Below, piece after piece: positions 512 through 16,391 of a DNA stretch of 64,000 nt (positions are counted from its first letter, which is position 1; each line of letters starts with the position of its first letter). This stretch comes from an uncultured Alphaproteobacteria bacterium. Lineage in GTDB: Bacteria; Pseudomonadota; Alphaproteobacteria; HIMB59; GCA-002718135. The notes beneath the pieces were generated by a model, which made no database searches, had not been told where the DNA came from, and worked only from the letters and a program-made list of their open reading frames with translations. Made by a program: the position numbers and the translations under genes. The stretch spans positions 36,474 to 100,473 of the forward strand of contig CACMKW010000003.1 of assembly GCA_902614395.1 (NCBI GenBank). Reading direction: 5' to 3'.

Positions 512-1411
512 ATGAGCACATTACCAGAAGATCTTAAAAGTAAAGCTTTAGAGACTCCTAACATACCCGCTGCTGTCGTATGCCCCAATCAAGAAAGCAT
601 CTTATCAGCTGTAATTGAAGGTAAAAATATGAACCTCATCGATCCAACATTGATTGGAAATAAAAGTTTAATTACCGAAACGGCAAAAAATTTCAGTTTG
701 GATATTTCAAATTTTAATATTGTAGAGGCTAAAGATGAAGAGGAAAGTGCTTCAGTTGCATGTCAAATGTCTAATGAAAATAAAAGTAAAATCATAATTA
801 AAGGGAACCTCCATACTGATATTTTAATGCGCTCTTATTTAAAAAAAGAATTTAATTTACTTGATGGTAGACGATTAAGTCATATTTGGCATATGAGTAC
901 ACCACAACTTGAAAAACCTCTTTTTATCACTGATGGTGCCCTAAATGTTTTACCAAGAGTTGATATAAAATTACAGATTCTCAAAAATGCTGTTCAGTTT
1001 TGTAATAAATTAAACATCAGCAAACCAAAAGTGGCAATTTTATCAGGTACAGAAGATCCAATTGAAAGTATGCCAAGTTCAGTCGATGCAAAAAAAGTTA
1101 TGGAACTTGCGTTTGAAGAAAAAATTAATGCATTTATTCATGGTCCGCTTGCTTTTGATAATGCGGTTTCTGAAGAAGCGGCTAAAATAAAAGGAATCAA
1201 TAATGATGTTGCTGGTGATGCTGATATATTATTAGTACCTAATTTAGAAACTGGAAATTCTTTATCTAAAATAATGGTTTATTTTATGAAGGCATGTGCG
1301 GCAGGAATAGTAATCGGTGGTAAAGTACCAGTTGTTGTTCCAAGTAGAGCTGATACTAAACATTCTAAACTTGCATCAATTATGGCAGCTGTTGTTGCTG
1401 CAAATAATTAA
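512..1411 (+). CDS. pta: phosphate acetyl/butyryl transferase, short PTA_PTB-family form
   Basis: Blocks IIKGNLHTD, ITDGALNV.P, KVAILSGTED, HGPLAFDNAVS, VAGDADILLVPNLETGNSLSK and C-terminal VVPSRADT match the Pta/Ptb family. It is the ~300 aa short form. Confidence 0.75.
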   Translation: MSTLPEDLKSKALETPNIPAAVVCPNQESILSAVIEGKNMNLIDPTLIGNKSLITETAKNFSLDISNFNIVEAKDEEESASVACQMSNENKSKIIIKGNLHTDILMRSYLKKEFNLLDGRRLSHIWHMSTPQLEKPLFITDGALNVLPRVDIKLQILKNAVQFCNKLNISKPKVAILSGTEDPIESMPSSVDAKKVMELAFEEKINAFIHGPLAFDNAVSEEAAKIKGINNDVAGDADILLVPNLETGNSLSKIMVYFMKACAAGIVIGGKVPVVVPSRADTKHSKLASIMAAVVAANN

Positions 1412-1434
1412 TTAACAAATAAATTTTAAGTCGA

Positions 1435-2292
1435 ATGCTTTTAAGACATTACTTTTTAATTTTAATAATCACTTTTTTATTTGGAAGTGCCTATCCAGTT
1501 CAGAAAGTTATTTTTAATGAAAATGTACCCCCATTATTAATGGGAAGTTTAAGAATGTTAGTGGTTTTTATATGCCTTTTACCTTTTTGGAGATTTAGAA
1601 TTCCTGAAAAAAAATACTGGCTACCACTTCTCTTTTTTTCAATCTCTATGGGTTTTTTAGCAAATGTCTTTATGACATTATCATTAAATGAAGCAAACAT
1701 AGTTTCTCCAATAATAATTGGTTCTCAACTGGCTGTACCATTTGCAATATTATTAAGCTCATTTTTTTTAAAAGAGAAAGTAAGTATTAAAAAATGGGTA
1801 CTAATATTTATTTCTTTTTTTGGCATCATTTTATTGGGCTTTGATCCATTAATAAGAAATGAAATTTTTGCATTATTCTTAATTACGTTAATGGCATTCT
1901 TCTATGCTAGTGCACAAGTATTTTCCAGGTACCTAAAAGATTTAGAAGTTACTCTCACAAATGCGTTAATGGGACTAGTTGGATTTGTATTACTAATTAT
2001 TTCATCATCAATTTTTGAAGGACAAACAATAAACGAAATAAAAAATATTAGTTTTCAGTCATGGTTATTAATATTGCATTCAGGTATCTTTGTTTCAATT
2101 GCTGCACACATGTCGATGTTTTATTTGTATAGGATGTATCCTGTTAATAGAGTATTTCCATTTTACGCTTTATTTCCTGTATTTGGCGTGTTGTTAACAT
2201 TTATAATTTTTTATGAAATACCAACTTTAATTACTTTTATTGGTGGTGTAATCGTAATCGTAGCAACTTATTTTATAAATAAAGAAAATTAA
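1435..2292 (+). CDS. DMT/EamA-family membrane transporter
   Basis: About 10 hydrophobic segments in two similar halves, 285 aa. It starts 24 nt after the pta stop on the same strand. Confidence 0.65.
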   Translation: MLLRHYFLILIITFLFGSAYPVQKVIFNENVPPLLMGSLRMLVVFICLLPFWRFRIPEKKYWLPLLFFSISMGFLANVFMTLSLNEANIVSPIIIGSQLAVPFAILLSSFFLKEKVSIKKWVLIFISFFGIILLGFDPLIRNEIFALFLITLMAFFYASAQVFSRYLKDLEVTLTNALMGLVGFVLLIISSSIFEGQTINEIKNISFQSWLLILHSGIFVSIAAHMSMFYLYRMYPVNRVFPFYALFPVFGVLLTFIIFYEIPTLITFIGGVIVIVATYFINKEN

Positions 2293-2299
2293 CTTTTGA

Positions 2300-3067
2300 T
2301 TATTTAGCTGTCCATCCTCCATCAATTACTAGTGATGAACCAGTCATCATTGATGCAGCATCTGAGGCAAGATACACTACAGCACTAGCAATATCACTTT
2401 CAGTAGCTACTTTTCCTAAAGGTATGTTTTCAATTACAGATTTTTTAAAACTTTTATCTTTAAAAAATTTTTTGACCATTGGGGTTTCCACAAATGTAGG
2501 GCAAACGGAATTAACTCTAATGTTGTGCTTAGCCAAATCAATAGCCATCCCTTTGGTGAGACCTTCAACACCAAACTTAGTCATATTGTAAACACTTCTA
2601 AGAGGAGCGCCTACTTTACCTAACTGAGAAGAGATATTTATTATTGATCCACCAATTTTTTTTCTATTTTTAGTTTTAAGCATAACTTTTGTAGCTAATT
2701 GAGCAATATCGAATGATGCTTTAATATTAAGATCAACCACTTCACTCATATCTTTTCTTTTAATTTTAGTAAAATATTCAGGTCTATTTGTGCCAGCATT
2801 ATTCACTAATATGTCTAATTTATTGATTTCAGAAAATATTTTTTTAATTTCTTTTAAATTAGTTACATCACACACATAATAACTACATTTCTTTTTGAGT
2901 TTTTTAATTTTGTCTTGAACAATTAAAAGATCTTTCTCTGTACGACTAAGAATAATTATATTTGCACCTGCTTCTGCTAATGCTATTGCACATGCTTTAC
3001 CAATGCCTTTACCTGATCCTGTAACAAGAGCAGTTTTGTTGTTTACAGTAAAATTTTTTAGAAACAT
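2300..3067 (-). CDS. short-chain dehydrogenase/reductase (classical SDR)
   Basis: Cofactor motif TGSGKGIGKA, NNAG, and catalytic S...YNMTK. 255 aa. It is the last gene of the minus-strand importer operon. Confidence 0.85.
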   Translation of the reverse strand: MFLKNFTVNNKTALVTGSGKGIGKACAIALAEAGANIIILSRTEKDLLIVQDKIKKLKKKCSYYVCDVTNLKEIKKIFSEINKLDILVNNAGTNRPEYFTKIKRKDMSEVVDLNIKASFDIAQLATKVMLKTKNRKKIGGSIINISSQLGKVGAPLRSVYNMTKFGVEGLTKGMAIDLAKHNIRVNSVCPTFVETPMVKKFFKDKSFKKSVIENIPLGKVATESDIASAVVYLASDAASMMTGSSLVIDGGWTAK

Positions 3068-3080
3068 TTATTATAATTGT

Positions 3081-3740
3081 TTACAATGAAAAAATAGATT
3101 GATCTAATAAATTCATTTTTTTGATGCACATTTGAAAATTATCTTCTAGGTGGTAATCACCTGGAAACCCAATACATTTAATTCCAGCGTTTACAGCAGA
3201 ATTACTACTTTCTTCAGTATCCTCTATTGCAAGACAATCTTCTGATTGTAAATTTAATTTATCTAACGTAACTTTATAAATTTCTGGATGTGGTTTTTCA
3301 TTTTTAACCAATGATTTATTACCAATGAATTCAAATTCTTCTTTTGAAATTTGACCTGAAAGACTTTCAAATACTGCATCGACATTATTTAAAGTTGTAG
3401 AAGTTGAGAAAGCAAGTTTAATATTATTATCTTTTGTATACTTAATTATTTCATCAACGCTCTTTCTTAATTTTTGTTTGTTCTGAATAATGAATGAGCT
3501 AAAGATTTCTGTTTTTCTATTTCTAATTTGTGAAGCGTTAACATTAGTATTATTTTTTTCAGCAAAATCTTCTACCCTTTTTGTCCCACCAGATTTTTTT
3601 AACAAAATTTTATAGTCTTGCTCATCCCAATACCAATCAAGTCCAGCTTCTTTAAAAGCTTCGTTAAATGAGTTACGTTGAATGTTAGAAGATTCAATTA
3701 GTGTCCCAATAGATCCAAATAGAAGTGCTTTATATTTCAT
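3081..3740 (-). CDS. HAD-superfamily (subfamily IA-like) protein with non-canonical motif I
   Basis: Motif II LAFSTST, motif III EKPHPEIY, motif IV IEDTEESSNSAVNAG. Motif I reads LLFGSIGTLIE where hhhDxDGT is expected. Confidence 0.65.
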   Translation of the reverse strand: MKYKALLFGSIGTLIESSNIQRNSFNEAFKEAGLDWYWDEQDYKILLKKSGGTKRVEDFAEKNNTNVNASQIRNRKTEIFSSFIIQNKQKLRKSVDEIIKYTKDNNIKLAFSTSTTLNNVDAVFESLSGQISKEEFEFIGNKSLVKNEKPHPEIYKVTLDKLNLQSEDCLAIEDTEESSNSAVNAGIKCIGFPGDYHLEDNFQMCIKKMNLLDQSIFSL

Positions 3741-3758
3741 AAGATTAGAAATTTATTA

Positions 3759-4640
3759 TTAACCTTTTACTGCTCCAGCAGTTAAACCACTTATTAATTG
3801 TCTTTGGAAAAACATAATTATCATAAAAAGTGGTGCTGTTGCTGAAACAACACTTGAGACTGCCCACATATAATTTCCACTATGTTCAATTGTACCCAAA
3901 TAAGCATTAATTTTAGGAACCATAGTATAATTCTGCTGATTTAAAAGAAGTGAAGTAACTGTAAAATCATTATAGGCTAACATCATACTGAATAAACCTG
4001 CTGTAACAACTCCAGGCCACATAACAGGCATTATAACAAATCGAAACGCTTGAAAATATGAACAGCCATCAATTAGTGCGCTTTCATCTAACTCTTTAGG
4101 AACTGTTTTAAAGAATGAATAAAGTAACCATAATGTAAAGGGTTGATTGATTGCGACTAAAACAATTATGGTAGTTGGAAGTATGCCCCAAACGTTCAAT
4201 TGGAAAAAGGGAAACAGATAACCTGAAACTAATGTAATGTGTGGCATCGCTCTAAAAATCAAGGCAGCTATTAAAATCCAAAAAGTATATTTATATGTCG
4301 ATCTAGACAAGGCATAAGCACCTAATGTTCCTAAAAATAAAGAGATCGTAACAACTGAAACAGTAATAATAATTGTATTCATTGTTGCTTTCCAAAATTC
4401 ACCTTCAGTCCAAGACTCTACATAAGCCTTGACTGTAGAAGTATCTCCTGTTTCAATTAAAGTATTAACTCCTGTGACTGCAAACATCCAATCAGCTCTT
4501 GAGAAAAAGTCGGCTTTTACTTTAAATGATCCCCAAAAAGTCCATATAAAAGGAAACACAGAAATAATTAACCAAGCAAGAATAAAAAAACTATTTATTA
4601 AAATTAGTTGTTTTGAGTATCTGTTAATTTTTGATTCCAT
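3759..4640 (-). CDS. carbohydrate-type ABC transporter permease (MalG/UgpE-like)
   Basis: Six hydrophobic segments and an EAA loop LDESALIDGCSYFQAFRFVIMP. Confidence 0.85.
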   Translation of the reverse strand: MESKINRYSKQLILINSFFILAWLIISVFPFIWTFWGSFKVKADFFSRADWMFAVTGVNTLIETGDTSTVKAYVESWTEGEFWKATMNTIIITVSVVTISLFLGTLGAYALSRSTYKYTFWILIAALIFRAMPHITLVSGYLFPFFQLNVWGILPTTIIVLVAINQPFTLWLLYSFFKTVPKELDESALIDGCSYFQAFRFVIMPVMWPGVVTAGLFSMMLAYNDFTVTSLLLNQQNYTMVPKINAYLGTIEHSGNYMWAVSSVVSATAPLFMIIMFFQRQLISGLTAGAVKG

Positions 4641-4641
4641 A

Positions 4642-5670
4642 TTATCTTTCTGTCCTAAATTCTCTCCATGTTCTTATAAGTACTGGTGTTAATAGAATTG
4701 CTACACCAATAATAGTTAACATAGATGTTGCTCCTGCAGACCCAAATAACATTTTGTTTTCACTTCTTAAGTCGTTATAAATCATCCAAGAAAGTGATTG
4801 AGCAACTCCTTCAGCAGCGAACCCAATTATTGGCTCAAGAACTCTGAAATTATCCATTAGACAAATTAATATAATAAATGTTGCTACCGGATAAAGATGT
4901 GGAATAACAATGTGTCTGACTCGTTCATATCTTGAGGCACCATCTATGATCGCTGCTTCAATTGGATCTTGAGGAACAGTTTGTAATGCAGCATAAAAAA
5001 CAACAAAAGCAAATGGTGTATTGTGCCAGATCCCGTAAATAATCAGAGTAATCCAAGTCAATTGACTTGAAGACTTCAGTGATAGATTTGGATCATCAAA
5101 TAAGAATTGAATGAATGAACCTAATATTCCTTTAGCATCTATCATCCAAAATAAAACGAGAGACCCAATCAATGGTGTTACAATCATAGGCAGTATAACA
5201 CCAAAAATGGTTGGGCCTTTTAAGCTTTTTGTAATTGTATTTACACTTAAAGCAACAATGAAACCTAAAACTACAACTGGTGGTGTAACGGCAAAACAAA
5301 ATGTAAGTGTAAATAAAAGTGCTTTGTAAAAAGGTAAATTGAGTAAAATATCTGTAAACTCAGCTATCGATGAGGAATTAGTCCAAGCTTCTTTAATTTC
5401 ATCAAAAGCCAAATGATTTCTATCGCCGTATGTTCCTAAACCATTAAATCTTCCAAGAGGTTGTTCTTCTTGTAATTTTGTAGTGGCCTCAATATCTACT
5501 TTAGTTTCTGTTTTACATCCAAATGGATCGCATTTTTCTACTTCCATTAAAATTTGTTCAGGTTCAATATGAAGAGATTGAAAAAAACTAGAAATAATTG
5601 GAAGGCCAATAAATAATAGCATTGCCAATCCACTTGGAAAGAAGAACCAAAAAAATGTTCTGTGGGGCAT
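4642..5670 (-). CDS. carbohydrate-type ABC transporter permease (MalF/UgpA-like)
   Basis: EAA loop IEAAIIDGASRYERVRHIVIP and a long loop after TM1. Its stop is 1 nt from the next permease start. Confidence 0.85.
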   Translation of the reverse strand: MPHRTFFWFFFPSGLAMLLFIGLPIISSFFQSLHIEPEQILMEVEKCDPFGCKTETKVDIEATTKLQEEQPLGRFNGLGTYGDRNHLAFDEIKEAWTNSSSIAEFTDILLNLPFYKALLFTLTFCFAVTPPVVVLGFIVALSVNTITKSLKGPTIFGVILPMIVTPLIGSLVLFWMIDAKGILGSFIQFLFDDPNLSLKSSSQLTWITLIIYGIWHNTPFAFVVFYAALQTVPQDPIEAAIIDGASRYERVRHIVIPHLYPVATFIILICLMDNFRVLEPIIGFAAEGVAQSLSWMIYNDLRSENKMLFGSAGATSMLTIIGVAILLTPVLIRTWREFRTER

Positions 5671-5682
5671 CTATTTCTTACT

Positions 5683-5714
5683 AAAAAAAAAGTGGAACAT
5701 AATAATGTTCCACT
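5683..5714 (-). terminator. intercistronic rho-independent hairpin (attenuator) between the SBP and permease genes
   Basis: On the minus strand: AGTGGAACAT-tatt-ATGTTCCACT followed by a run of 9 T. It lies 22 nt after the SBP stop and 12 nt before the permease start. Confidence 0.6.
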
Positions 5715-5736
5715 TTATCATAAATAATTATACGGT

Positions 5737-6972
5737 TTATAGAAAACCTTGCTCAGTAGCTTTTGCTACATAAGCAGCTTCTACATCCGCTAATGCTTTT
5801 TCAGCAGACTCATTTCCTTGAAGGAATTCAACAAGTTCCGTACTCAAAGCACCATGTAATAGACTCATGTATGGTAAGCTTGGGTAAGGTGTTGCACCTC
5901 TGTTAGCAGCATCAACAACTGGTCCTGCTGTATCTCCAGGCGAATAACCATCAATCAACCAAATTGTTGCATTTGGATTAGCATTTGCCATTTCTGTTGA
6001 AGTTGCTGCACCTAAAAGAGCTCTAAAAGATGCTTCTGCATTTTCATCAGAAGTATTTGTTGCAATTCCAAATCCATCCCACCATAGAGTTGTTGCTGGT
6101 TTACTTCCACCACCTACAGATGGAGAAGGAGCCAATCTAGTATCAGCTTTAATTGCTTGATCACCTTCATCATCTAACAATGAAGCTGCACCTGAATTCC
6201 AGATGTGCATTAATGCTACATTACCAGACTCCCATTCTTCTTTAACTGCATTTGTATCTTGAGTTAAGAAATCAGGGTTACTTACTTCAGTTAATCTTTT
6301 AAGCATGTTAAGAGCAGCTACACCTTTAGCGTTATTTACACTAACTTCAGCTGTTCCAGCTTTAAAGAAATCACCCCCGTGACCAAGGTACATGTTTACA
6401 AACTCTTGACCTAAGTTCCATCCAGATTTGAAAGCACCAGCATATGGGTTAGCCATTTTACCAGAAGCTTTAATTTTTTCTGCAGCTGCAATTACCTCTT
6501 CATATGTTGAAGGAACTGCAATACCTAAATCATTAAGAATACTTTCTCTGTACCAAAGATGTTGAGCATTAGCCATAAATGCTACTGCATAAATTTTACC
6601 ATCAATCACGATTTTTTGATTGTCTTGTAATGCACTTCCGTATTTAGCAACTAAATCATCAAGTGGACGAATTAAATTATCATTCATTAAAGTTGTAATT
6701 GAACCATTAGTTACAAGTTTAGCAGAGAATTCAGCTGGGTTAGCTGAAAGTGCTGCAACTTGTAATTTATTATGATCAACGGAATGTGTTACAGAAAAAT
6801 CTGCATCAGGTCCTGCACAACTTTTTACTTCATCCATGAAAATTCTGTATGTTGTAAATTCGTTTGCTAGAATCTTTATTGATCCATCTGTTACTCCACA
6901 AGGTGAGTGCCCACCGGCATATGCACTTGTGCTAACAAATGTGAACAATAGAGCTATTAATAGTTTTTTCAT
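5737..6972 (-). CDS. ABC transporter periplasmic substrate-binding protein, family 1 (sugar/polyol type)
   Basis: Signal peptide MKKLLIALLFTFVSTSAYA. 411 aa. It is the first gene of an operon with two sugar-type permeases. Confidence 0.8.
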   Translation of the reverse strand: MKKLLIALLFTFVSTSAYAGGHSPCGVTDGSIKILANEFTTYRIFMDEVKSCAGPDADFSVTHSVDHNKLQVAALSANPAEFSAKLVTNGSITTLMNDNLIRPLDDLVAKYGSALQDNQKIVIDGKIYAVAFMANAQHLWYRESILNDLGIAVPSTYEEVIAAAEKIKASGKMANPYAGAFKSGWNLGQEFVNMYLGHGGDFFKAGTAEVSVNNAKGVAALNMLKRLTEVSNPDFLTQDTNAVKEEWESGNVALMHIWNSGAASLLDDEGDQAIKADTRLAPSPSVGGGSKPATTLWWDGFGIATNTSDENAEASFRALLGAATSTEMANANPNATIWLIDGYSPGDTAGPVVDAANRGATPYPSLPYMSLLHGALSTELVEFLQGNESAEKALADVEAAYVAKATEQGFL

Positions 6973-6994
6973 ATATTTCCCCTTATTAATAAAG

Positions 6995-7007
6995 TGTGAA
7001 ATTCACA
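6995..7007. promoter_or_regulatory. palindrome TGTGAAaTTCACA upstream of the SBP operon; candidate operator
   Basis: Perfect 6+1+6 inverted repeat, 23 nt upstream of the SBP start codon at 6972. The half-site TGTGAA resembles LacI/GalR-type half-sites, but the spacing is odd. Confidence 0.3.
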
Positions 7008-7063
7008 TTTAAGTATAAATCCTTTATATTAGTATTAGAAAATAATGCAATAATATGAATTGA

Positions 7064-7081
7064 TATTCAAGATTTTGAATA
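7064..7081. promoter_or_regulatory. operator candidate TATTCA-N6-TGAATA (site 1 of a motif recurring in this island)
   Basis: TATTCAagatttTGAATA. The arms extend to 8 bp (ATATTCAA/TTGAATAT). It ends 20 nt before the LacI-family start codon. Confidence 0.5.
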
Positions 7082-7101
7082 TTGAAATGGGGGGATAATT
7101 C

Positions 7102-8100
7102 ATGAGTTTTAAAAAGACTGCGACATCACAGGACGTAGCAAAACTAGCAGGAGTATCCCAATCAGCTGTTTCTAGATGTTTTACAAAAGGTGCTAGCATT
7201 TCTAGTAGAACAAAATTGAGAGTCTTGGAAGCAGCTAGGAAATTAAAATATAAAGCACCTAATATAACTTCTAATTCAATATCTAATGATGATAGCGGAT
7301 TAGTTGCTGTCATTTTACCTTACGTTACAAGCAGATATTATCCAGAAGTTTTAATAGAGTTACATGAAGCACTAAGGAATGGAGGCTTTAGAATTTTATT
7401 AATTACAACTGATGATGGAGAGGAATTAGATGAAAAATTAATACAGCCATACTTAAAAGAAAAACTCATTGCAATAATATCAGCAACAAAACCTACTGAT
7501 AAATTTGTCGAAGATTGCAATCAAAAAAGAATACAATTTATTGCTTATAATAGAAGTTGGAATATACCAACGATAAGTTCTGTTGCATGTGATCATCGTA
7601 ACGGAGGAGAATTAGTTGCAGAATATTTTACAAAGAAAAATCATAAAAATATTGGCCTGATTGAAGGGCCAAAAGGATCTTTTGTAAGTGATGAGCGATG
7701 CAAAGGTTTTAAAAATTATCTTAAAAATAATAAAAAAATTAAATTAAATATTGAAAAAGGTTTTTTTACTTACGAAGGTGGATATCAAGCAACAGAAAAA
7801 ATTTTCAATAAAAAGATAAGTGCAATATTTTGTGCTGATGACACAATGGCATTCGGATGCTTAGATTATATTAAAAAAAATACTTCATTAAAAACACCTT
7901 CTCAATTAGAAATTATTGGTTATGACGATATATCAATGTCAGCTTGGGGATCATATAACCTTACAACTGTCAGACAACCTATTAGACAAATGTCAAAAAT
8001 AGCAACTCAATTAATAAATGAATATATTAAAGATCCAGATTTTGAACCTATAAATCATATTGTACAGGGAAGACTTATAAAAAGAAAAACTACAAAATAA
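7102..8100 (+). CDS. LacI-family transcriptional regulator
   Basis: N-terminal HTH TSQDVAKLAGVSQSAVSRCF and a periplasmic-binding-fold effector domain. 332 aa. G-rich SD-like run at 7089-7094. Confidence 0.85.
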   Translation: MSFKKTATSQDVAKLAGVSQSAVSRCFTKGASISSRTKLRVLEAARKLKYKAPNITSNSISNDDSGLVAVILPYVTSRYYPEVLIELHEALRNGGFRILLITTDDGEELDEKLIQPYLKEKLIAIISATKPTDKFVEDCNQKRIQFIAYNRSWNIPTISSVACDHRNGGELVAEYFTKKNHKNIGLIEGPKGSFVSDERCKGFKNYLKNNKKIKLNIEKGFFTYEGGYQATEKIFNKKISAIFCADDTMAFGCLDYIKKNTSLKTPSQLEIIGYDDISMSAWGSYNLTTVRQPIRQMSKIATQLINEYIKDPDFEPINHIVQGRLIKRKTTK

Positions 8101-8101
8101 T

Positions 8102-8521
8102 TTACTTAAATTTTAATCCCATCTGTTCGAAGACACCATGATTATCTACCATAACGTAATTATCTAAAAATTTTCCATCTTTAATGGTCCAAAAATCTGA
8201 AAATTGCATTTTGATAGATTTCCCTGTTGGCTCCACTCCAAGATATGTTCCACTATGTGTGCCTGTAAGAAATCCTGTTGCACTAATCCACTCACCTTCA
8301 GCAACCACAATATCATTTTTTACATGATAATCTGGAAATGCTTCATAAAAAGGTTTTAGAACTTTATATTTAAAATTTTCTATACCATGAATATCACCAA
8401 AACCTGGAGGACCGTGCCAAACCATATCATCATGCCAGTACTTATGTTGTGCTTCTAGATCTTGAGCATTAAGTGCATCATACATATCAGCTAATAATTT
8501 TTTACTTTCATCTAAAGTCAT
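8102..8521 (-). CDS. single-domain SnoaL-like / 'ester cyclase' NTF2-fold protein
   Basis: 139 aa with ...YWHDDMVWHGPPGFG...AFPDY...GTHSG.YLGVEPTGKS...FWTIKDGKFLDNYVMVDNHGVFEQMGL. Its start overlaps the upstream gene by 4 nt. Confidence 0.7.
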   Translation of the reverse strand: MTLDESKKLLADMYDALNAQDLEAQHKYWHDDMVWHGPPGFGDIHGIENFKYKVLKPFYEAFPDYHVKNDIVVAEGEWISATGFLTGTHSGTYLGVEPTGKSIKMQFSDFWTIKDGKFLDNYVMVDNHGVFEQMGLKFK

Positions 8522-9657
8522 TTTTTATCTCCTAAAATTTGCATTAGTATTGCAAGCTCATTAAAACCCGTCCACTCTTTAATAATTTTATTATTTTTAA
8601 TTTCCCATTGAGTGATTCCCCACAAATACACTTCTCTATTAGATGGTTGACCATATGAGCCATTCCCTTTATGCGTTCCTACTGCACCCCAACGAACCGA
8701 TACTAAATATCCGTCTTTTGTATTTCCCATCCAGTATAAATCTTCAATACTAAGTGCAAGATCAGGAAACGAAGCTAAAAGTGAAATTATAAATTTTCTT
8801 AATTGCAAAACTCCTTTAAATTTTCGACCAGTTGAACCTTCAAATTCTACCTTATTCGAGTATGCTTTATTTATTGCAGAAAAGTTTCGTCTATTCCAAA
8901 TTGTATCATAAACTGCATGAACAAATTCTCTTACATTTGTAATTTTATCTGGAATATCAAAACTAATTGGTTTTAATTTAGTAATATTTCTTGTTGGTTT
9001 AGAGTTTTTAAAATGAGGGGCATAGGGTCCTGCAATTCCTTCATCAACAAGTTGCTTGGCAACCTTATTTAAATCTAATCCGAGTTGTTTAATTAAACCT
9101 GCTGTATCGTAGACAACATTTTCGTAATAAATTTCATTATTTCTGGCTACACAATTCGCAATACAAAATAATCTTACTTTTTTACCAGTTGGTTTGGAAA
9201 ATTTGCTAAATCCAGTATTTGTTCCAGTAATAATTGTTCTATGCGAAGTATGAAAACTTGCATTTTCATCTCCTGCCCAAATAACTTCATCTGCAAATAA
9301 TCGAATATCTGGAAAAGCGTTGTTTGTATGTACAGTATCAGCTACAATTTTTTCAGATCCAGATTGTAAACCAAATTCATCCCAAACTCTGCAATCTTTA
9401 CTGTAGGTGTCATAAATGTAGCCAATATTTTTTTCTTCCCAGATTTGATACGTAATCCTTACAATATAATCGATTATATTTTTATACTGATTCTCAAACC
9501 CCTTCATCGATTGATGTTTAAGTTTTTTTGGTTTTGGATTTAATGATTTTGCTGTTCCTCCACCTCCATATGCTTTTAATGAAATATCATAACTCTTAGG
9601 CATATGATTATCATGAAGGGCTTCTGGTCTTTTATCTGTAATTTTATTAAATTTCAT
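8518..9657 (-). CDS. two-domain SnoaL-like protein, type A
   Basis: Two NTF2-like halves ending ...CVARNNEIYYENVVYDTAGLIKQLGL and ...WEIKNNKIIKEWTGFNELAILMQIL. It is a paralog of 11902-12894. An alternative start at 9507 (MKGFENQYKN) would align with the paralog's N-terminus MKGFDAQFKD. Confidence 0.65.
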   Translation of the reverse strand: MKFNKITDKRPEALHDNHMPKSYDISLKAYGGGGTAKSLNPKPKKLKHQSMKGFENQYKNIIDYIVRITYQIWEEKNIGYIYDTYSKDCRVWDEFGLQSGSEKIVADTVHTNNAFPDIRLFADEVIWAGDENASFHTSHRTIITGTNTGFSKFSKPTGKKVRLFCIANCVARNNEIYYENVVYDTAGLIKQLGLDLNKVAKQLVDEGIAGPYAPHFKNSKPTRNITKLKPISFDIPDKITNVREFVHAVYDTIWNRRNFSAINKAYSNKVEFEGSTGRKFKGVLQLRKFIISLLASFPDLALSIEDLYWMGNTKDGYLVSVRWGAVGTHKGNGSYGQPSNREVYLWGITQWEIKNNKIIKEWTGFNELAILMQILGDKK

Positions 9658-9690
9658 AATTTGTATTTGTAATGAGATACATTTAAAAAT

Positions 9691-9728
9691 ATTTCAAAGC
9701 AATGAAATTTTATTCAAAAAAATGAATA
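9691..9728. promoter_or_regulatory. two adjacent operator candidates (ATTTCA-N6-TGAAAT and TATTCA-N6-TGAATA)
   Basis: 9691-9708 ATTTCAaagcaaTGAAAT and 9711-9728 TATTCAaaaaaaTGAATA, in the divergent gap between the type A and type B SnoaL-like genes. Confidence 0.5.
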
Positions 9729-9764
9729 TTGTCTTTTTTAGTTTATTAATATAATCAAAATGAA

Positions 9765-10769
9765 ATGACTGATCTCCAAGCAGAAAAAAAATTAATATTA
9801 GATTATTCAAATGAGATAGATAGTTGCAACATTGATTCATTATCTGAAGTTATATCCAAATACGCATCAGAAGATTTTAGTATGAAATGTACCCACCCAT
9901 TCAACGAACTAGGTAGTATAGATCTTGTTGCTAATAATCTTTGGAAACCAATTAAAGATTCATTTTCACCTATACAACGTCGATTAGATATATTTTATGC
10001 TGGGATAAATTCGCTAGATAAAAATAAAGGGAAATGGATCTCCAGTATGGGTCATTTCATGGGTGTTTTCAATAAGCCGTTTGTAGGCCTTAAACCAAAT
10101 AATAAATCAATTTTATTAAGATTTGCAGAATTTTACAAAGTGGAAAATAACAAAATTACTGAAGGAGCTATTTTTTTAGATGTAATGAATTTAATGCAGC
10201 AACTAGGTCTTTCTATAATTCCTGAATCTACAGGTCTTGTTTGTGTAACACCTGGACCAATGAATCATAAAGGTTTAAAATTTGATATTTCTAATGAAAG
10301 TGAAAGTCAAAAAACATTAGATTTAATTCATAGAATGCGCGATCGACTTGTTAAAGGATCCAAAATGCAATCTTATAAAGAAGAATTAGAATTAGATTGG
10401 CATAATGACATGATTTGGTGGGGACCAGGAGGTATAGGAGCTTCTTATACTATTGATGGCTATCAAAAAGGTCACACAAAACCATTTCAAGATGGTTTAG
10501 AGTTTGTTCGTTTCAATGGACACATACTTAGTAGCTCTGAAGATGATCTTGGAGGTTGGTTTGGTTGGCCAAATTTAATTATGAAACCTAAAGGAGAATA
10601 TTTAGGATTAACAAATGCAAGTAATATTGAATCAGAAATGAGAGTTGTAGATTTATATCGAAGAGATGGAGATAAATTAGCTGAAAACTGGATCTTTATT
10701 GATCATTTACATTTTTTAAAAAAACTAGGAGTGGATCTTTTAGAAAGAGCAAAATTTTTAAATCAGTAA
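9765..10769 (+). CDS. two-domain SnoaL-like protein, type B
   Basis: Halves ending ...YKVENNKITEGAIFLDVMNLMQQLGL and ...YRRDGDKLAENWIFIDHLHFLKKLGV. Contains DMIWWGPGGIGAS. It is a paralog of 13969-15066. Confidence 0.65.
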   Translation: MTDLQAEKKLILDYSNEIDSCNIDSLSEVISKYASEDFSMKCTHPFNELGSIDLVANNLWKPIKDSFSPIQRRLDIFYAGINSLDKNKGKWISSMGHFMGVFNKPFVGLKPNNKSILLRFAEFYKVENNKITEGAIFLDVMNLMQQLGLSIIPESTGLVCVTPGPMNHKGLKFDISNESESQKTLDLIHRMRDRLVKGSKMQSYKEELELDWHNDMIWWGPGGIGASYTIDGYQKGHTKPFQDGLEFVRFNGHILSSSEDDLGGWFGWPNLIMKPKGEYLGLTNASNIESEMRVVDLYRRDGDKLAENWIFIDHLHFLKKLGVDLLERAKFLNQ

Positions 10770-11897
10770 TTAGATAACTTTTGAGGCAAGTTTAGTACCT
10801 TCAACTAATGCATGAAGCTTTTCATAACAAATTTTTTCATCAATTTTTCCAAAACCAGCAAATGTACTAAAACCACAATCTGTCCCTGCCATTAATTGAT
10901 CTTTTGGAATTACTGTAGAAAACTGAATTAATCTATCTGCTACAACTTCTGGATGTTCAACAAAATTAGATGTTGAATCAATTACGCCAGGTACTAAGAC
11001 TTTATCTTTTGGTAACTTTATATCTTGAAAAACTTTCCATTCATGTGCGTGCCTAGGATTAGAAGACTCAATTAGAAAGTATTTTATCTTTGATTTCAAA
11101 ATTATAGGTAATATTTTCTCTAGAGCAATATCGTGTGTGTGGGGTCCTTCATAATTGCCCCAACATATATGCATTCTAGTTTGTTCAATATCAACATTAG
11201 ATAATGCTGAGTTCAGACATTCAATTTGTAGTTCTGCACGTTTAATAAATTCATCCTCAGATAAATTTTTAAAATTCATGTGTCTTGCTAAAGCAAGGTC
11301 TGGGCAATCTAGCTGAACATGAATATTTGATTTTGTTATAACCTCATATTCTTTAGCCATAATATTAGATAATTTATCCAAATATTCATCTTCAGTACTA
11401 TAAAATTTATTTGGCATAAAAACATTTATGACGCCAGGTGATGCTGAGTTCATAAATGCATGTCGGTGATTTAGTTTATCAAGTGAATTTTTAAAGTTAT
11501 TTATATCCTGTAGAAGAGAAGTTTCATCTTTTACTTTTAATTCGTTTGTGCAACATGGCCTGGTATAAGTTGGTGTGCCACCACTTTTAGCAATCTTTTC
11601 TTTATATTCTGGAAAATCGTCAAGGTCAGCAGGTGCTCTTCTTTCGCTTTCACCTGAGAACCCATCAATTCTGTCTTTAATATATGTAGCGTAGCTAATT
11701 TTACTCATCTCCCCATCACTGACAAAATCAATTCCAACATCAAGTTGTCTCTTCACAACACTTTCCACGTTATTTTTTAATACTTCATCAAAACTACTTT
11801 TACTAAATTTCTCTCCTTTATCTTTTGCAAATAAAAAATCTGAAAGTTCTTTTGATCTAGGAAGGCTTCCAACATGTGTTGTCAAAATATTAGACAT
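10770..11897 (-). CDS. stand-alone MetE-like (cobalamin-independent methionine synthase catalytic-domain family) Zn-dependent methyltransferase
   Basis: N-terminus MSNILTTHVGSLPR. Candidate Zn ligands MHICWGN (H.C), LIESSNPRH (E) and AGTDCGFS (C) are in the order expected for MetE. 375 aa, so only the catalytic barrel is present. Confidence 0.7.
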   Translation of the reverse strand: MSNILTTHVGSLPRSKELSDFLFAKDKGEKFSKSSFDEVLKNNVESVVKRQLDVGIDFVSDGEMSKISYATYIKDRIDGFSGESERRAPADLDDFPEYKEKIAKSGGTPTYTRPCCTNELKVKDETSLLQDINNFKNSLDKLNHRHAFMNSASPGVINVFMPNKFYSTEDEYLDKLSNIMAKEYEVITKSNIHVQLDCPDLALARHMNFKNLSEDEFIKRAELQIECLNSALSNVDIEQTRMHICWGNYEGPHTHDIALEKILPIILKSKIKYFLIESSNPRHAHEWKVFQDIKLPKDKVLVPGVIDSTSNFVEHPEVVADRLIQFSTVIPKDQLMAGTDCGFSTFAGFGKIDEKICYEKLHALVEGTKLASKVI

Positions 11898-11901
11898 TAA
11901 A

Positions 11902-12894
11902 TTAACCTGTTTTTAATAAAATCTGTTTCCAGATCATAGTTTCATCATAGAGAACCCATTCATTTTTAATACCTCTTTCTCCAAATTCAACATGATTAAT
12001 ACCCATTATATAAATTTTCGAATTAGAGGCTTTCCCAAAAAGACCATCCCCTTCATGTTTGCCTACCATAGACCAACGAACTGAAGCTTTTTTAGGTTCA
12101 TATTTTTCTTCAGTAAAAGCAATGTGCTCGACTGAGAACAATGCGTTAGGAAAAGCATCTCTTAATTGTTTCCAAAATTTTATTACCTCATCTCTACCAT
12201 AGTGAGTATTTCCCCCTGGTTGAAATTGCTGTATGGCTCTGTCATAATTATCATTTATTGTTTTGTCTAAATTAATGTTCATAATAGAACTTAAGATATT
12301 TGCATATAATTCTCCAAAGTTACCAGATGCTAATACAGGAGATTTATAAATTGATTTAACAGGTGTATTTTCATCAAAGGGTTTACTAGCTTTTTCAGGA
12401 CCGCCTTCATCTTTAATTAGATTGCTTGCAAATTTCTTGGGGTCAATTCCAATTTGTCTCACAATTGCTCCTTGATCTCTCACAAGCCACTCATCATAAA
12501 CTTGATTATTCATGCATGCACAATCAGCAATAGTTCGGTAATATAGTTTTTTTCCTGTCGCTTTCCCATACATCCCATCAACAGAATGAGTAGAGGTTGA
12601 TAAAATGCGATGTGATGAAAAATATCCCTCATCATCATTTCCTGTCCAAATTACATCTTCACCTAAAAGTGTTCTGTCGGGAAATAGTTTTTTACTAGCA
12701 TAGGTACTTTCAATTACTGGGTCTGCACCATAAATTACTCCAGATGGAGATCTTGTAGGTGTGGGGAGGCTTACATTTGGAATATCAGCATAATAATCTC
12801 TTATTGCTTCAACATCATTGTTTTCCCAAATTTGATATGTGATCTTTAAAATATAATCAGGAAAATCTTTGAATTGTGCATCAAATCCTTTCAT
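11902..12894 (-). CDS. two-domain SnoaL-like protein, type A
   Basis: MKGFDAQFKDFPDYILKITYQIWE..., with halves ending ...CMNNQVYDEWLVRDQGAIVRQIGI and ...FGERGIKNEWVLYDETMIWKQIL. Confidence 0.65.
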   Translation of the reverse strand: MKGFDAQFKDFPDYILKITYQIWENNDVEAIRDYYADIPNVSLPTPTRSPSGVIYGADPVIESTYASKKLFPDRTLLGEDVIWTGNDDEGYFSSHRILSTSTHSVDGMYGKATGKKLYYRTIADCACMNNQVYDEWLVRDQGAIVRQIGIDPKKFASNLIKDEGGPEKASKPFDENTPVKSIYKSPVLASGNFGELYANILSSIMNINLDKTINDNYDRAIQQFQPGGNTHYGRDEVIKFWKQLRDAFPNALFSVEHIAFTEEKYEPKKASVRWSMVGKHEGDGLFGKASNSKIYIMGINHVEFGERGIKNEWVLYDETMIWKQILLKTG

Positions 12895-12905
12895 TTAATT
12901 AATAT

Positions 12906-13877
12906 TTAATTAGTTTGCCGTATTATAAATAAATTACCATCATGATCACTTATCTGCCTGATTGAACGTAGTGAATTTTTTGGTACTGAAAAGGTATCTT
13001 TTTCTTTAATTACTACTTTATCTCCATCACAATCTATTTCCCATTCGCCAGATAAACAATGATACACTTCTGATTTCTCTAGTTTGTATTCATGTATATG
13101 AGCACTCTTGCCGTTCAGAAGTGAAAGGCTAAAACCTGTTGAATGCGGTATATTTGGTGTAAAAGATTTATCATGAATTTGAAACTGATCAATATAGTTA
13201 ATAATTTTATTAGATTGATAGTGATCATCATCAACAAAGTATTTATCTTTATCATTAAATCGAATAACAAATTTTTCTATGTCTTCTGAAGAGTAATGAT
13301 CGAAACTCTCTAATTCATTATCTTTTAGTGGTTGAATAATTTTAGTCTCATCTGTTATTTTCTGTTTCTCTGTGTCGATTAAAGAATTATCATGCATTAA
13401 TACCATGCCAGATTCTTTTGCATCTTTTAAAAGTTTAGGCGTCCAAGTAATAACACCTGGATCATTTTCACCTAACACAACAAACATTAGCGCCTCTTCA
13501 TCACTTACATTTTGAAAACCTCTGAACATGTTTGTAGGAAAAGAAGCAATATCACCTTTTTTTAGGATTACTTCTCCCTCTGTGCCATCAACACCCCAGT
13601 AAAAACGCCAAGCACCTGAATGAATGATAAAAACTTCTGCAGTTGTATGACTATGTAAACCAGAACCATTCATTGGAGCAGCGCTTACCGCACCAATATT
13701 AAATCCATGTTCTTCAGCTATTTTAACGTTTTGTTTAGCATCTTCACTGACACCAGGGCCTATTACTGAATAATTTTTTCTATCTTGATGACCTTTTAAT
13801 TTTCCCTCAACAAATGGAATATTACTAGGAATAAGTTCATCGAATTTTGCTAATCTAGATGTAATATTAATTGACAT
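12906..13877 (-). CDS. bicupin protein
   Basis: N-terminal cupin motif 1 GSGLHSHTTAEVFIIHSG (HxH...E). Motif 2 is GDIASFPTNMFRGFQN, with Arg where the His is expected. The C-terminal cupin has HIHEY...E...H. Confidence 0.65.
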   Translation of the reverse strand: MSINITSRLAKFDELIPSNIPFVEGKLKGHQDRKNYSVIGPGVSEDAKQNVKIAEEHGFNIGAVSAAPMNGSGLHSHTTAEVFIIHSGAWRFYWGVDGTEGEVILKKGDIASFPTNMFRGFQNVSDEEALMFVVLGENDPGVITWTPKLLKDAKESGMVLMHDNSLIDTEKQKITDETKIIQPLKDNELESFDHYSSEDIEKFVIRFNDKDKYFVDDDHYQSNKIINYIDQFQIHDKSFTPNIPHSTGFSLSLLNGKSAHIHEYKLEKSEVYHCLSGEWEIDCDGDKVVIKEKDTFSVPKNSLRSIRQISDHDGNLFIIRQTN

Positions 13878-13892
13878 ATTGTTATGATCTTT

Positions 13893-13930
13893 TATTCATT
13901 TTTTTTGAATATTATTCAAAATAATGAATA
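13893..13930. promoter_or_regulatory. two adjacent operator candidates (TATTCA-N7-TGAATA and TATTCA-N6-TGAATA)
   Basis: 13893-13911 TATTCAtttttttTGAATA and 13913-13930 TATTCAaaataaTGAATA, in the divergent gap between the bicupin operon and the type B/HisD-like operon. Confidence 0.5.
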
Positions 13931-13968
13931 AATCAATTATTATTTAACAATAGTGTTATTAAATTATT

Positions 13969-15066
13969 ATGGCAAATAAAATACAAAACTTTGATACAGG
14001 TGAAAAAGCTAACTCAAACATAATTCATTTAGATCTTGATCCAAAAATAAATATCGAAAACAAAATATATTTTAAATATTTATTAAATAAAATTGCTGAA
14101 TGTTCTATTGAAGATTTAGAAGATAATCTTGAAAATTTATATCATGTAGATGCAGAGCTTAATGGCTTTCATCCAGTTAATGAAATTAAGGGAATTGAAG
14201 AAATAAAAAATAAATATTTAATACCTTTAAAGAAAGCATTTCCTGATCTTGAAAGAAGAAATAATCTAGTTATTGGTGGAGCATTCAGAGATAAAGTATT
14301 TGTTTCATTTGTTAGTCATTTAACTGGAACATTTTCAAATGAATGGTTGGGCGTTAAACCAACAAACAAAACAATTCATCTTCGAACATGTGAAGCACAT
14401 CAAATAACTAATAACAAAATAATAAAATCCTACACATTGATTGATACTGTAGATTTTATTCGTCAGGCTGGTCATTGGCCCATTAATAAATCGCTTGGTG
14501 TAGAGGGTATGTGGCCTTCCCCAATCACAGGTGATGGAGAAAATAATCAAAATTTAGATAAGGAATTATCTCTTCAATCTTTAAATCAAGATTTAACTAT
14601 GCAAAGAAGTTTGAATATTAAACCCGAGACTGAACCAGGTCTTACAAAAGATCAAATAAGAGAAAAATTAATTAATCATCCTCAACAAGATTATTGGCAT
14701 CCAAAAATGATGTGGTATGGGCCAAGTGGCATAGGCACAGCTAGAGGTTTAGATGGTTTTGTTGATCATCACCAACTCCCATTTAGACTTACATTCAAGG
14801 ATAGAGATTATTGGAAAATTGGTCATTACATTGAAATTGGGGATGGAAATTATTCAATGACTGGAGGATGGCATAGTATCCAATGTGTCCATGGATCTAG
14901 TGATTGGCTAGGGTATGAACCAACTCATAAAAAAATAACAATGAGAGTAATGGATTTTTATTTACATCATGAAGGACTTATAAGGGAAAATTGGGTACCA
15001 ATTGATATAGCACACATACTCGATCAAATAGGTATTGATATCTTTAAATTAATTCATAAAAAATAA
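13969..15066 (+). CDS. two-domain SnoaL-like protein, type B
   Basis: Halves ending ...[25 protein letters not shown] and ...[26 protein letters not shown]. Contains [12 protein letters not shown]. Confidence 0.65.
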
Positions 15067-15068
15067 TT

Positions 15069-16391
15069 ATGGCAATTGAATATTTAAAAAAAGGATTAGA
15101 TGAAAAACAAAGAATTGAAGATAATGATAAAGTAAAAAAAATTGTTGAGGAAACATTAAGTAAAATTGAGTCAGAAGGTGATAAACACATTAGAGAGTTA
15201 TCTCAAAAATTTGATAACTATTCACCAGATAGTTTTAGGTTAAATGAAGATCAAATTAATCAATTAATCAGTGAAGTATCTGATGATGATAAAGAAGATA
15301 TTAAATTTGCTCAGAAACAAGTGCGCACATTTGCTGAAGCACAACTAAAAACTTTAAGTGAATTAGAAGTAGAAACGCACCCAGGTGTTATTCTAGGTCA
15401 TAAGAATATACCTGTACAAGCAGTAGGTTGCTATGTTCCAGCCGGTAAATTTCCAATGGTGGCTTCTGCACATATGTCAGTTGTTACTGCCTCTGTTGCT
15501 GGTGTACCAAGAATTGTAGCCACAACTCCACCTTTTAAAGGTAAACCAAATCCAGCAGTTGTAACAGCAATGAAAATGGGCGGTGCTCACGAAATTTATG
15601 TCTTAGGAGGAATGCAAGGAGTTGGCGCAATGGCTATTGGTACAGAAACTATTAAACCAGTTGATATGCTTGTTGGACCTGGCAATGCATTTGTTGCTGA
15701 AGCGAAAAGACAATTGTATGGTAGAGTTGGTATCGATTTATTTGCTGGTCCAACCGAAACAATGGTTATTGCTGATGAAACTGTTGATGGTGAAATATGT
15801 GCAACTGATTTATTAGGACAAGCTGAACATGGATATAATTCTCCTGCTATAATGATAACAAACTCAAGAAAACTTGCAGAAGATACATTTAAAGAGATTG
15901 ATAGAATTTTAGAAATATTACCTACTAAAGAAACAGCAAGTACAAGCTGGAAAGATTACGGGGAAATTATTTTGTGTGACACCTATGAGGAGATGTTATC
16001 TAAAGCAAATGAAATAGCATCAGAACACGTACAAGTAATGACAAAAAAAGATGATTGGTTTTTAGAAAATATGACATCTTATGGAGCTCTTTTTTTGGGA
16101 GCTAGAACTAATGTTGCTAATGGTGATAAAGTAATAGGCACCAATCATACTCTTCCTACTAAAAAAGCTGGAAAATACACTGGTGGTTTATGGGTTGGTA
16201 AATTTATTAAAACTCACACCTATCAAAAAATTATGACAGATGAAGCAGCTAAACTTATTGGAGAATATGGATCAAGACTATCTTACCTTGAGGGATTTAT
16301 TGGTCACGCAGAACAATGCAATGTTAGAGTGAGAAGATATGGTGGCTTAAATGTAGAGTATGGAAAACCTGCATCAAAAATTAAAAATTAA
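15069..16391 (+). CDS. histidinol-dehydrogenase-family NAD-dependent 4-electron alcohol dehydrogenase (paralog; substrate unknown)
   Basis: HisD blocks [50 protein letters not shown] and EGFIGHAEQ. It starts 2 nt after the SnoaL-like type B gene and is not in a his-operon context. Confidence 0.8.

Follow-up and report, generated by a model that had tools for sequence, protein, structure and literature searches.

In regulators of the LacI family, a leucine of the hinge helix inserts at the central CG step of the operator. CytR of E. coli has a weakened or flexible hinge; its operators lack the central CG, and the protein tolerates varied spacings and orientations of the half-sites. Among 1303 surveyed LacI-family motifs, 1173 carried a central CG and 78 had another or a degenerate center; 72% of the factors were autoregulated, and in some groups double sites 21–22 bp apart were obligatory (PMC4052901). 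The spacing of the double sites of RafR and ScrR has been read as indicating that two dimers bind cooperatively (PMC4052901). In addition, where LacI-family members have lost the hinge Ala/Leu, their operators are without the central CG (PMC2329647). Here, we analyzed a window of 64,000 nucleotides (contig CACMKW010000003.1, positions 36,474 to 100,473, forward strand; "the window" below means this whole stretch), in which three short divergent gaps carry arrays built on the palindrome TATTCA-N6-TGAATA, one of them directly before a gene for a LacI-family regulator. From sequence comparison, we put the probability that these arrays are operators of the local LacI-family repressor, encoded at 7102–8100, at roughly 0.8; the system is probably a local, autoregulated LacI-family regulon of a known kind with an unusual, loosened operator design. 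This reading is supported because the arrays were kept in all island types, the helix-turn-helix is nearly invariant, distant relatives with an identical recognition helix and similar neighboring genes have operators made of the same half-site words, and loss of the hinge would explain the absence of the CG. The sequence evidence supports the proposal of the first-pass annotation of this DNA that the importer/HAD/SDR operon and the SnoaL-like genes are under the joint control of a single regulator, for which the LacI-family protein is the simplest candidate.

The window is A/T-rich (25–34% G+C) and matched SAR11 (Pelagibacterales) single-cell genomes; at the closest locus the LacI protein was 100% identical. 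Pfam assignments and gene layout divided the island at 2300–16391 into six transcription units forming three divergent pairs, rather than the five units counted previously. The divergent gaps lie at 6973–7101 (gap 1), 9658–9764 (gap 2), and 13878–13968 (gap 3); they measure 91–129 nt, and each must house two promoters. The six units, with contents assigned by Pfam, are as follows (island types are described below).

2300–6972, minus strand: operon 1, presumed regulated, with genes for a substrate-binding protein (SBP; 5737–6972), two permeases, a HAD-like protein, and an SDR protein; kept with LacI in 76 loci.
7102–8100, plus strand: LacI-family regulator of 332 aa with PF00356 and Peripla_BP domains; paired with operon 1 across gap 1.
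8102–9657, minus strand: presumed regulated operon of two SnoaL-like genes (8518–9657 and 8102–8521); this module and its operator pair occur in Type I islands only.
9765–10769, plus strand: SnoaL-like gene, presumed regulated; partner in the gap 2 pair.
10770–13877, minus strand: presumed regulated operon of bicupin, SnoaL-like, and MetE-like genes; found in every island type.
13969–16391, plus strand: presumed regulated operon of a SnoaL-like gene and a HisD-like dehydrogenase gene; HisD-like genes also flank distant LacI relatives.

As reported previously, TATTCA-N6-TGAATA occurs exactly at 7064–7081, 9711–9728, and 13913–13930, one site per divergent gap. Shuffled sequences contained 0.02 exact matches on average compared with three in the window, and none of 100 shuffles reached three. 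When the spacer was allowed to vary, ATTCA-Nx-TGAAT was found in the window at the three sites (x = 6), at 13894 (x = 7), and as short-spacer N2 and N3 matches at 55296 and 63663, which are unrelated sites far outside the island; no match with x = 4, 5, or 8–13 was present in the window. The first-pass annotation had also described second, upstream copies in gap 2 (ATTTCAaagcaaTGAAAT at 9691–9708) and gap 3 (TATTCA-N7-TGAATA at 13893–13911), and had extended the arms of the gap 1 site to 8 bp (7063–7082), with the site ending 20 nt before the LacI start. All of these details are correct. It did not mention a second copy in gap 1, where AATGCAataataTGAATT lies at 7044–7061. The tandem pair is therefore present in all three gaps, 20 bp start to start. 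The elements are listed below without strand; h1 to h4 denote the successive half-sites, and bits are scores of the position weight matrix (PWM) described further on.

7044–7061: gap 1 distal copy AATGCAataataTGAATT; h1 at 7045–7049 and h2 at 7056–7060; 16.4 bits; conserved in all Type I loci.
7064–7081: gap 1 proximal copy TATTCAagatttTGAATA, exact; h3 at 7065–7069 and h4 at 7076–7080; 19.8 bits; conserved.
7056–7069: gap 1 inner dyad TGAATTGATATTCA; 11 of 14 positions equal the canonical operator of the subfamily, TGAATTCGAATTCA, with the central CG absent.
9691–9708: gap 2 distal copy ATTTCAaagcaaTGAAAT, degenerate; h1 at 9692–9696 and h2 at 9703–9707; 13.0 bits; conserved in Type I.
9711–9728: gap 2 proximal copy TATTCAaaaaaaTGAATA, exact; h3 at 9712–9716 and h4 at 9723–9727; 20.5 bits; conserved.
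9703–9716: gap 2 inner dyad TGAAATTTTATTCA.
13893–13911: gap 3 distal copy TATTCAtttttttTGAATA, with a 7-nt spacer; h1 at 13894–13898 and h2 at 13906–13910.
13913–13930: gap 3 proximal copy TATTCAaaataaTGAATA, exact; h3 at 13914–13918 and h4 at 13925–13929; 22.3 bits.
13906–13918: gap 3 inner dyad TGAATATTATTCA, 13 bp.

Each gap therefore holds four alternating half-sites, ATTCA / TGAAT / ATTCA / TGAAT, of the word TG(A/C)AT, arranged as ATTCA-N6/7-TGAAT-N3/4-ATTCA-N6-TGAAT. The half-sites start at 7045/7056/7065/7076 in gap 1, 9692/9703/9712/9723 in gap 2, and 13894/13906/13914/13925 in gap 3, giving steps of 11-9-11 bp in gaps 1 and 2 and 12-8-11 bp in gap 3. In every gap, the distance from h1 to h3 is 20 bp and that from h1 to h4 is 31 bp, indicating that the four half-sites lie on the same face of the DNA helix. 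At the positions expected for further outer partners (h0 and h5), no conservation was seen, and therefore we take the array to consist of exactly four half-sites. In the palindrome of the earlier description, the half-sites are joined tail to tail as h1–h2 and h3–h4. At the centers of the inner dyads, formed by h2 and h3, the window has TGAT, TTTT, and ATT, other lineages have AATT, AAAT, and TAAT, and none of these contains CG; the earlier remark that the motif lacks a central CG was borne out, and the N6 spacers lack CG as well.

We built a PWM of 17.7 bits from 46 distinct orthologous sites and set the threshold for a hit at 13 bits; the copy with the N7 spacer was not scored. The specificity scans covered the window itself (64 kb) and 76 related SAR11 loci totaling 1.42 Mb. 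In the window, the PWM recovered the five scored copies (22.3, 20.5, 19.8, 16.4, and 13.0 bits) and found no match of at least 13 bits in any other intergenic gap, in agreement with the first-pass statement that the motif had not been seen in the other sizeable gaps. A match of 17.4 bits at 41616–41635 was considered as an extra operator and rejected; it lies inside the reading frame 41466–43070 and is within chance, at 0.64 shuffle hits of at least 14 bits per window. The pattern with two mismatches was not enriched (16 found versus 16.0 expected); the near-exact form alone is informative. In the 1.42 Mb, 260 PWM hits of at least 13 bits fell in the three gaps and about 20 elsewhere, of which about 15 trace to a single site that some lineages have inherited within the LacI gene. 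This operator-like site, AAATTCAACTTATTGCATTT, lies about 420 nt into the LacI gene and scores 14.7–18.1 bits (L057:10416, L033:10428, and orthologues; numbers with L are our locus handles); it occurs in Type III and in some Type I lineages and is absent from the window. A site upstream of cysQ in L032, which is unshared by orthologues, was treated as chance. We also scanned metagenomes with ATKCA-N6-TGMAT-N4-ATKCA-N6-TGMAT. The pattern proved poor and uninformative on specificity: the matches were mostly ATGCAT satellites with a 10-bp period, only three island sites (L140, L155, and L180) were among the 120 matches listed, and none of the listed matches outside these three had a LacI gene nearby.

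The 76 loci, all from SAR11 single-cell genomes, were obtained in one scan of genome contigs, and their LacI orthologues are 68–100% identical. They fall into three island types. Type I has the layout of the window, whereas Types II and III are without the gap 2 SnoaL pair and have an SBP only 40–47% identical to that of the window. Footprinting of the orthologous gaps, which the first-pass annotation had proposed as a check, found the arrays conserved across the 76 loci. The four-half-site array was kept in the SBP/LacI and bicupin/SnoaL gaps of all three types and, in Type I, also in gap 2; the array of the SnoaL/SnoaL gap was kept wherever that module exists. In 3 of 3 island types, the LacI gene is immediately preceded by an array, despite their differing importer proteins. 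The gap 1 distal copy reads TTGCAT..TGAAT in Types II and III, the gap 2 distal copy is AATTCAatttaaTGAATT in the most divergent Type I lineage, and the N7 spacing of the gap 3 distal copy was kept in 33 of 33 distinct orthologous sequences. In the alignment of these 33 gap 3 sequences, 76% of the operator columns, 95% of the half-site columns, and 18% of the other intergenic columns were invariant. Between-lineage identity at four-fold degenerate sites was mostly 0.3–0.5; that is, silent sites were saturated and yet the half-site columns remained almost invariant, indicating that the arrays carry a clear footprint of selection. Within N6 copies, the flanks vary symmetrically (AATTCA..TGAATT, ATTTCA..TGAAAT, and TATTCA..TGAATA). 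Separately, many lineages of Types II and III (L038–L070) have an extra SnoaL-like gene in the importer operon, and gap 1 of Type III (e.g., L057) has a different long palindrome, ACGTATAAAAAACAATTTTTTTACGCGTA, near the SBP start.

The regulator has a LacI-type helix-turn-helix (HTH) and a periplasmic-binding-protein-like effector core (PF00356 plus Peripla_BP_1/3/4). Its full-length structural matches in the PDB were CcpA, RbsR, PurR, and LacI (E = 5.5e-29 and weaker), and no NCBIfam equivalog reached its cut-off for the 332-aa protein. Among SAR11 orthologues, HTH residues 8–50 were nearly invariant and the recognition helix AGVSQSAVSRCF was invariant. Meanwhile, residues ~52–66, at the hinge position, were hypervariable, with a one-residue insertion; a variable linker (APNITSNSISNDD in the window, PQTFLQDSQNIED and PQSFSTNSLSLDE in orthologues) replaces PNAIARGL. 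The SAR11 protein thus lacks the conserved hinge helix PNxxARxL of the LacI/GalR family, and the arrays lack the central CG of LacI/GalR operators. The missing CG fits the loss of the conserved hinge. An inverted repeat with TGNAA-type half-sites facing the center of a core of about 14 bp, as in LacI/GalR operators, is seen in TGAATTGATATTCA and TGAAATTTTATTCA, while the gap 3 core has 13 bp. The sites also stand before the regulator's own gene and its presumed targets, with the gap 1 array ending 20 nt before the LacI start and arrays in the other divergent gaps as well. A search of 1.8 billion cluster representatives placed the SAR11 proteins in one isolated cluster, with 35–41% identity to the nearest relatives outside it.

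The next relatives of the SAR11 LacI protein are about 33–41% identical. Almost all of them keep the recognition helix as AGVSQSAVSR(C/A/T)F, matching AGVSQSAVSRCF, together with a canonical hinge (PNAIARGL / GY(R/Q)PNAIARSL; the segment of one relative is PNAIARGLITRRSN), which the SAR11 proteins alone are without. Both the hinge and TGAATACGCATTCA are present in a relative whose contig has 36% G+C; therefore, A/T richness alone does not explain the loss of the CG. We took the neighborhoods of six relatives, including Agarilytica rhodophyticola CP020038 (L199) and a Pseudomonadales metagenome-assembled genome. All six (33–37% identical) adjoin HisD-like, SDR, SnoaL-like, bicupin, HpcH-aldolase, and alpha/beta-hydrolase genes, and have a sodium symporter or TonB receptor instead of the ABC importer. 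The presence of the regulator with the same enzyme set in all six distant loci indicates that the link between this LacI subfamily and the enzymes is old, and the shared gene set suggests a single, widespread route for breaking down some unknown compound. The relatives' loci (L198–L205) often have Amidohydrolase_2 and serine dehydratase genes as well, and in one Pseudomonadales relative (L203:10288-12684) shell genes of a bacterial microcompartment (BMC, EutN/CcmL, and CsoS1D-like) and an aldehyde dehydrogenase gene lie beside the SnoaL gene of the cluster.

With at most two mismatches allowed, TGMATTCGAATKCA had 10 matches in the 8.7 kb of intergenic DNA of the six loci, as against a single match in their 69.6 kb of coding DNA. 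In these operators, TGAAT points toward the central CG (TTCGAA) within a 14-bp core, and the L204 operator TGAATTCGAATGCA combines TGAAT and TGCAT, both of which are variants of the SAR11 half-sites. The shared recognition helix and the shared half-site words tie the SAR11 arrays to the LacI protein. A first register, in which TATTCAA-N4-TTGAATA was aligned to the family consensus TGNAA, was dropped, as the relatives show TGAAT facing the dyad center.

The same words bear on the alternative that the arrays are bound by a regulator encoded elsewhere, such as an ArgR-type hexamer or a MetR/LysR-type tetramer, and that the LacI protein uses another site, e.g., the palindrome TGTGAAaTTCACA at 6995–7007. 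The ARG box has the core TGAAT-N4-ATTCA, and the consensus of the MetR/LysR-type site is TGAA-N5-TTCA; the inner dyad equals the former, and gap 3 has the MetR spacing. In addition, the CG typical of LacI-family sites is absent from the array, and TGTGAAaTTCACA is conserved in Type I and LacI/GalR-like in look. However, ARG operators are two complete 18-bp boxes (wnTGAATwwwwATTCAnw) separated by 2–3 bp, and the protein that binds them is a hexamer with another fold, whereas each gap here has one TGAAT-N4-ATTCA with unconserved outer partner positions. The half-site words also occur in Gammaproteobacteria of 41–51% G+C, next to genes for distant LacI relatives with the shared recognition helix, and TGTGAAaTTCACA is absent from Types II and III although the LacI HTH is identical there. 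No second regulator gene was present in any of the 76 islands. We consider a regulator encoded elsewhere unlikely.

Candidate core promoters occupy plausible positions in the gaps, and the arrays would overlap or abut them.

7002–7030, plus strand: candidate LacI promoter TTCACA-17-TATATT; 10 of 12 consensus positions, both hexamers conserved in Type I.
7050–7079, minus strand: candidate SBP promoter TTCAAA-18-TATTAT, inside the operator pair; 9 of 12 consensus positions.
13915–13943, plus strand: candidate SnoaL/HisD promoter TTCAAA-17-TATTAT, with the -35 in h3 and h4 in the spacer.

The promoter at 7002–7030 would put the gap 1 array at about +7 to +44, in the LacI leader. A -10-like TAWTAT at the gap 3 position (±1 nt) was kept in all island types. 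In gap 2, a conserved TATAAT (9750–9755) lies about 20 nt after the array and 9 nt before the start codon of 9765–10769. Conserved -10-like boxes (9750–9765 and 13956–13969) stand about 7–10 nt before the plus-strand SnoaL start codons, and the sequence suggests that the plus-strand SnoaL mRNAs are leaderless or nearly so. The perfect palindrome TGTGAAaTTCACA lies 23 nt before the SBP start codon and is conserved in Type I only; its right arm is the -35-like hexamer TTCACA of the LacI promoter candidate. A third operator-like site, weak in the window (ATTCAcatttaAGTAT at 7002–7017) but matching fully in the L024 and L030–L032 lineages (ATTCACATTTATGAAT), takes its left half from the same palindrome.

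The position of these hexamers bears on another explanation, in which the repeats are promoter or DNA-shape elements of compact two-way promoters, with TTGAAT/TTCAAA as -35-like boxes on both strands accompanied by A/T tracts. TTCAAA in h3 and h4 does score as a -35 hexamer in gaps 1 and 3, and the gaps are tiny and A/T-rich. However, four strictly dyad-symmetric half-sites with 95% invariant columns exceed the need of two -35 boxes. None of the other divergent gaps in the window contains the word, the half-sites of the relatives form CG-centered palindromes, and the count from the promoter scan was no higher than in shuffles. We judge this explanation highly improbable. Less credible still would be an action at the RNA level, in which the palindromes form hairpins in 5' leaders and affect stability or translation. 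Any transcribed palindrome can fold, and the gap 1 array would be part of the LacI leader if the promoter at 7002–7030 is real; however, the stems would have only 5–6 A/U-rich pairs, the predicted folding of the SBP leader region does not exceed that of shuffles (z = -1.55), the arrays of gaps 2 and 3 lie upstream of the likely -10 boxes, and no Rfam family matches any of the three gaps.

If the arrays are operators of the LacI-family repressor, as we prefer, two repressor dimers with four HTH domains would fill the array without effector and exclude RNA polymerase from both promoters. The repressor's own promoter would also be blocked, resulting in autoregulation. An imported compound or a breakdown intermediate would bind the sugar-binding-protein-like core, and the DNA would be released. 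We postulate that the inner pair TGAAT-N4-ATTCA descends from the CG-centered operator of the subfamily, TGMATTCGAATKCA, and that in the SAR11 clade the CG-reading hinge helix decayed to a variable linker, the CG was lost, and two outer half-sites were added. The unit equivalent to the canonical operator of the family would be the inner pair h2–h3 across the copy junction, and TATTCA-N6-TGAATA would be an everted pairing. More tentatively, and with slightly less than even confidence, we propose that the SAR11 LacI protein, without the hinge/CG clamp, reads four alternating half-sites about one turn apart as two dimers with freely tethered heads, possibly in the everted N6 pairing, and that hinge decay, CG loss, and outer half-site gain co-evolved in one lineage. 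The everted N6 pairing would be one that no characterized LacI-family member uses, with the ancestral state still visible in the relatives. Among the papers searched, none treats a Pelagibacter LacI operator; a paper on homarine catabolism (PMC13236597) was set aside as irrelevant, as lacI there is a plasmid part.

All island genes were transcribed in four marine metatranscriptomes, in which no contig crossed gap 2 (depth zero). These data are assembled contigs, whose depth is a poor measure of expression, and with this limit the word depths were about 1000–5000 for SBP, 3–20 for LacI, 10–100 for the gap 2 SnoaL genes, 30–300 for bicupin, and 20–130 for the HisD-like gene. The high-depth SBP contigs end at 6957–6985 for assembly reasons, and no transcription start could be placed from them. 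A strong terminator-like hairpin lies right after the SBP stop and before the permeases (5665–5760, minus strand; -24.2 kcal/mol, z = -4.55), with the arms AAAGUGGAACAU-UAUU-AUGUUCCACUUU followed by a U run; a weak, sub-threshold match to L20_leader overlaps it. This hairpin may account for part of the excess of SBP mRNA over the rest of the operon.

Several points weigh against the arrays being operators of the local repressor. By contig depth, SBP mRNA exceeded that of the other island genes, LacI and SnoaL among them, 10–100-fold in situ; by this poor measure, the operons are unequal in level. The consensus matches of the promoter scan were no better than those in shuffles. The arrays depart from a standard LacI operator in having no central CG, a 13-bp inner dyad in gap 3, and partnerless outer half-sites. 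The pairing of the dimers is drawn in two directions, as the symmetric flank variation favors the N6 unit and the operators of the relatives favor the inner pair. Finally, further sites or candidate regulators may exist beyond the scanned window and the 76 loci.

The regulon delimits which of about 14 genes act together, including the ABC importer, five multi-domain SnoaL-like proteins, and the bicupin, MetE-like, and HisD-like proteins. The mRNA of the importer SBP is very abundant in seawater. Gammaproteobacteria, too, keep this enzyme set under a regulator of this subfamily, which points to a widespread breakdown pathway of an unknown marine compound. This compound could be identified via the effector of the repressor. 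In addition, the relatives with a hinge and a CG operator and SAR11, with neither of these but with extra half-sites, form a natural before-and-after pair for studying the co-evolution of hinge and operator.

Among known systems, the ARG boxes of ArgR have the same core, TGAAT-N4-ATTCA, in tandem on one DNA face. The SAR11 array differs in that it comprises one complete box and two outer half-sites, and its sites track the LacI gene. The geometry of the inner dyad is also that of the catabolite-responsive element (CRE) consensus TGNAARCGNWWWCA (PMC2329647). EbgR-like members without the hinge Ala/Leu have operators without a central CG, as in SAR11 (PMC2329647). However, the EbgR-like sites are palindromes of odd length centered on one C or G, CytR depends on its partner CRP, and neither is described with four alternating half-sites, unlike the SAR11 system. 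The regulons of RafR (Enterobacteriales) and ScrR (Burkholderiales) are likewise local and under autoregulation, and their divergent promoter gaps hold two palindromes separated by about two helical turns (PMC4052901). Compared with these, the SAR11 sites are spaced at 20 bp rather than 21–22 bp, lack the central CG, and have the canonical-type dyad across the copy junction. The operators of the distant relatives, TGMATTCGAATKCA (e.g., in L199), accompany regulators with the identical recognition helix, AGVSQSAVSRCF, and have the same words, TGAAT/TGCAT, facing the center of a 14-bp core. They also stand in HisD-like, SDR, bicupin, and SnoaL promoter gaps and before the regulator's own operon. 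However, SAR11 lacks the central CG (TTCGAA) and the hinge PNAIARGL that the relatives have retained, and the relatives' sites are single or widely spaced (78–172 bp apart in L204), whereas the SAR11 arrays have two extra outer half-sites in steps of about 10 bp.

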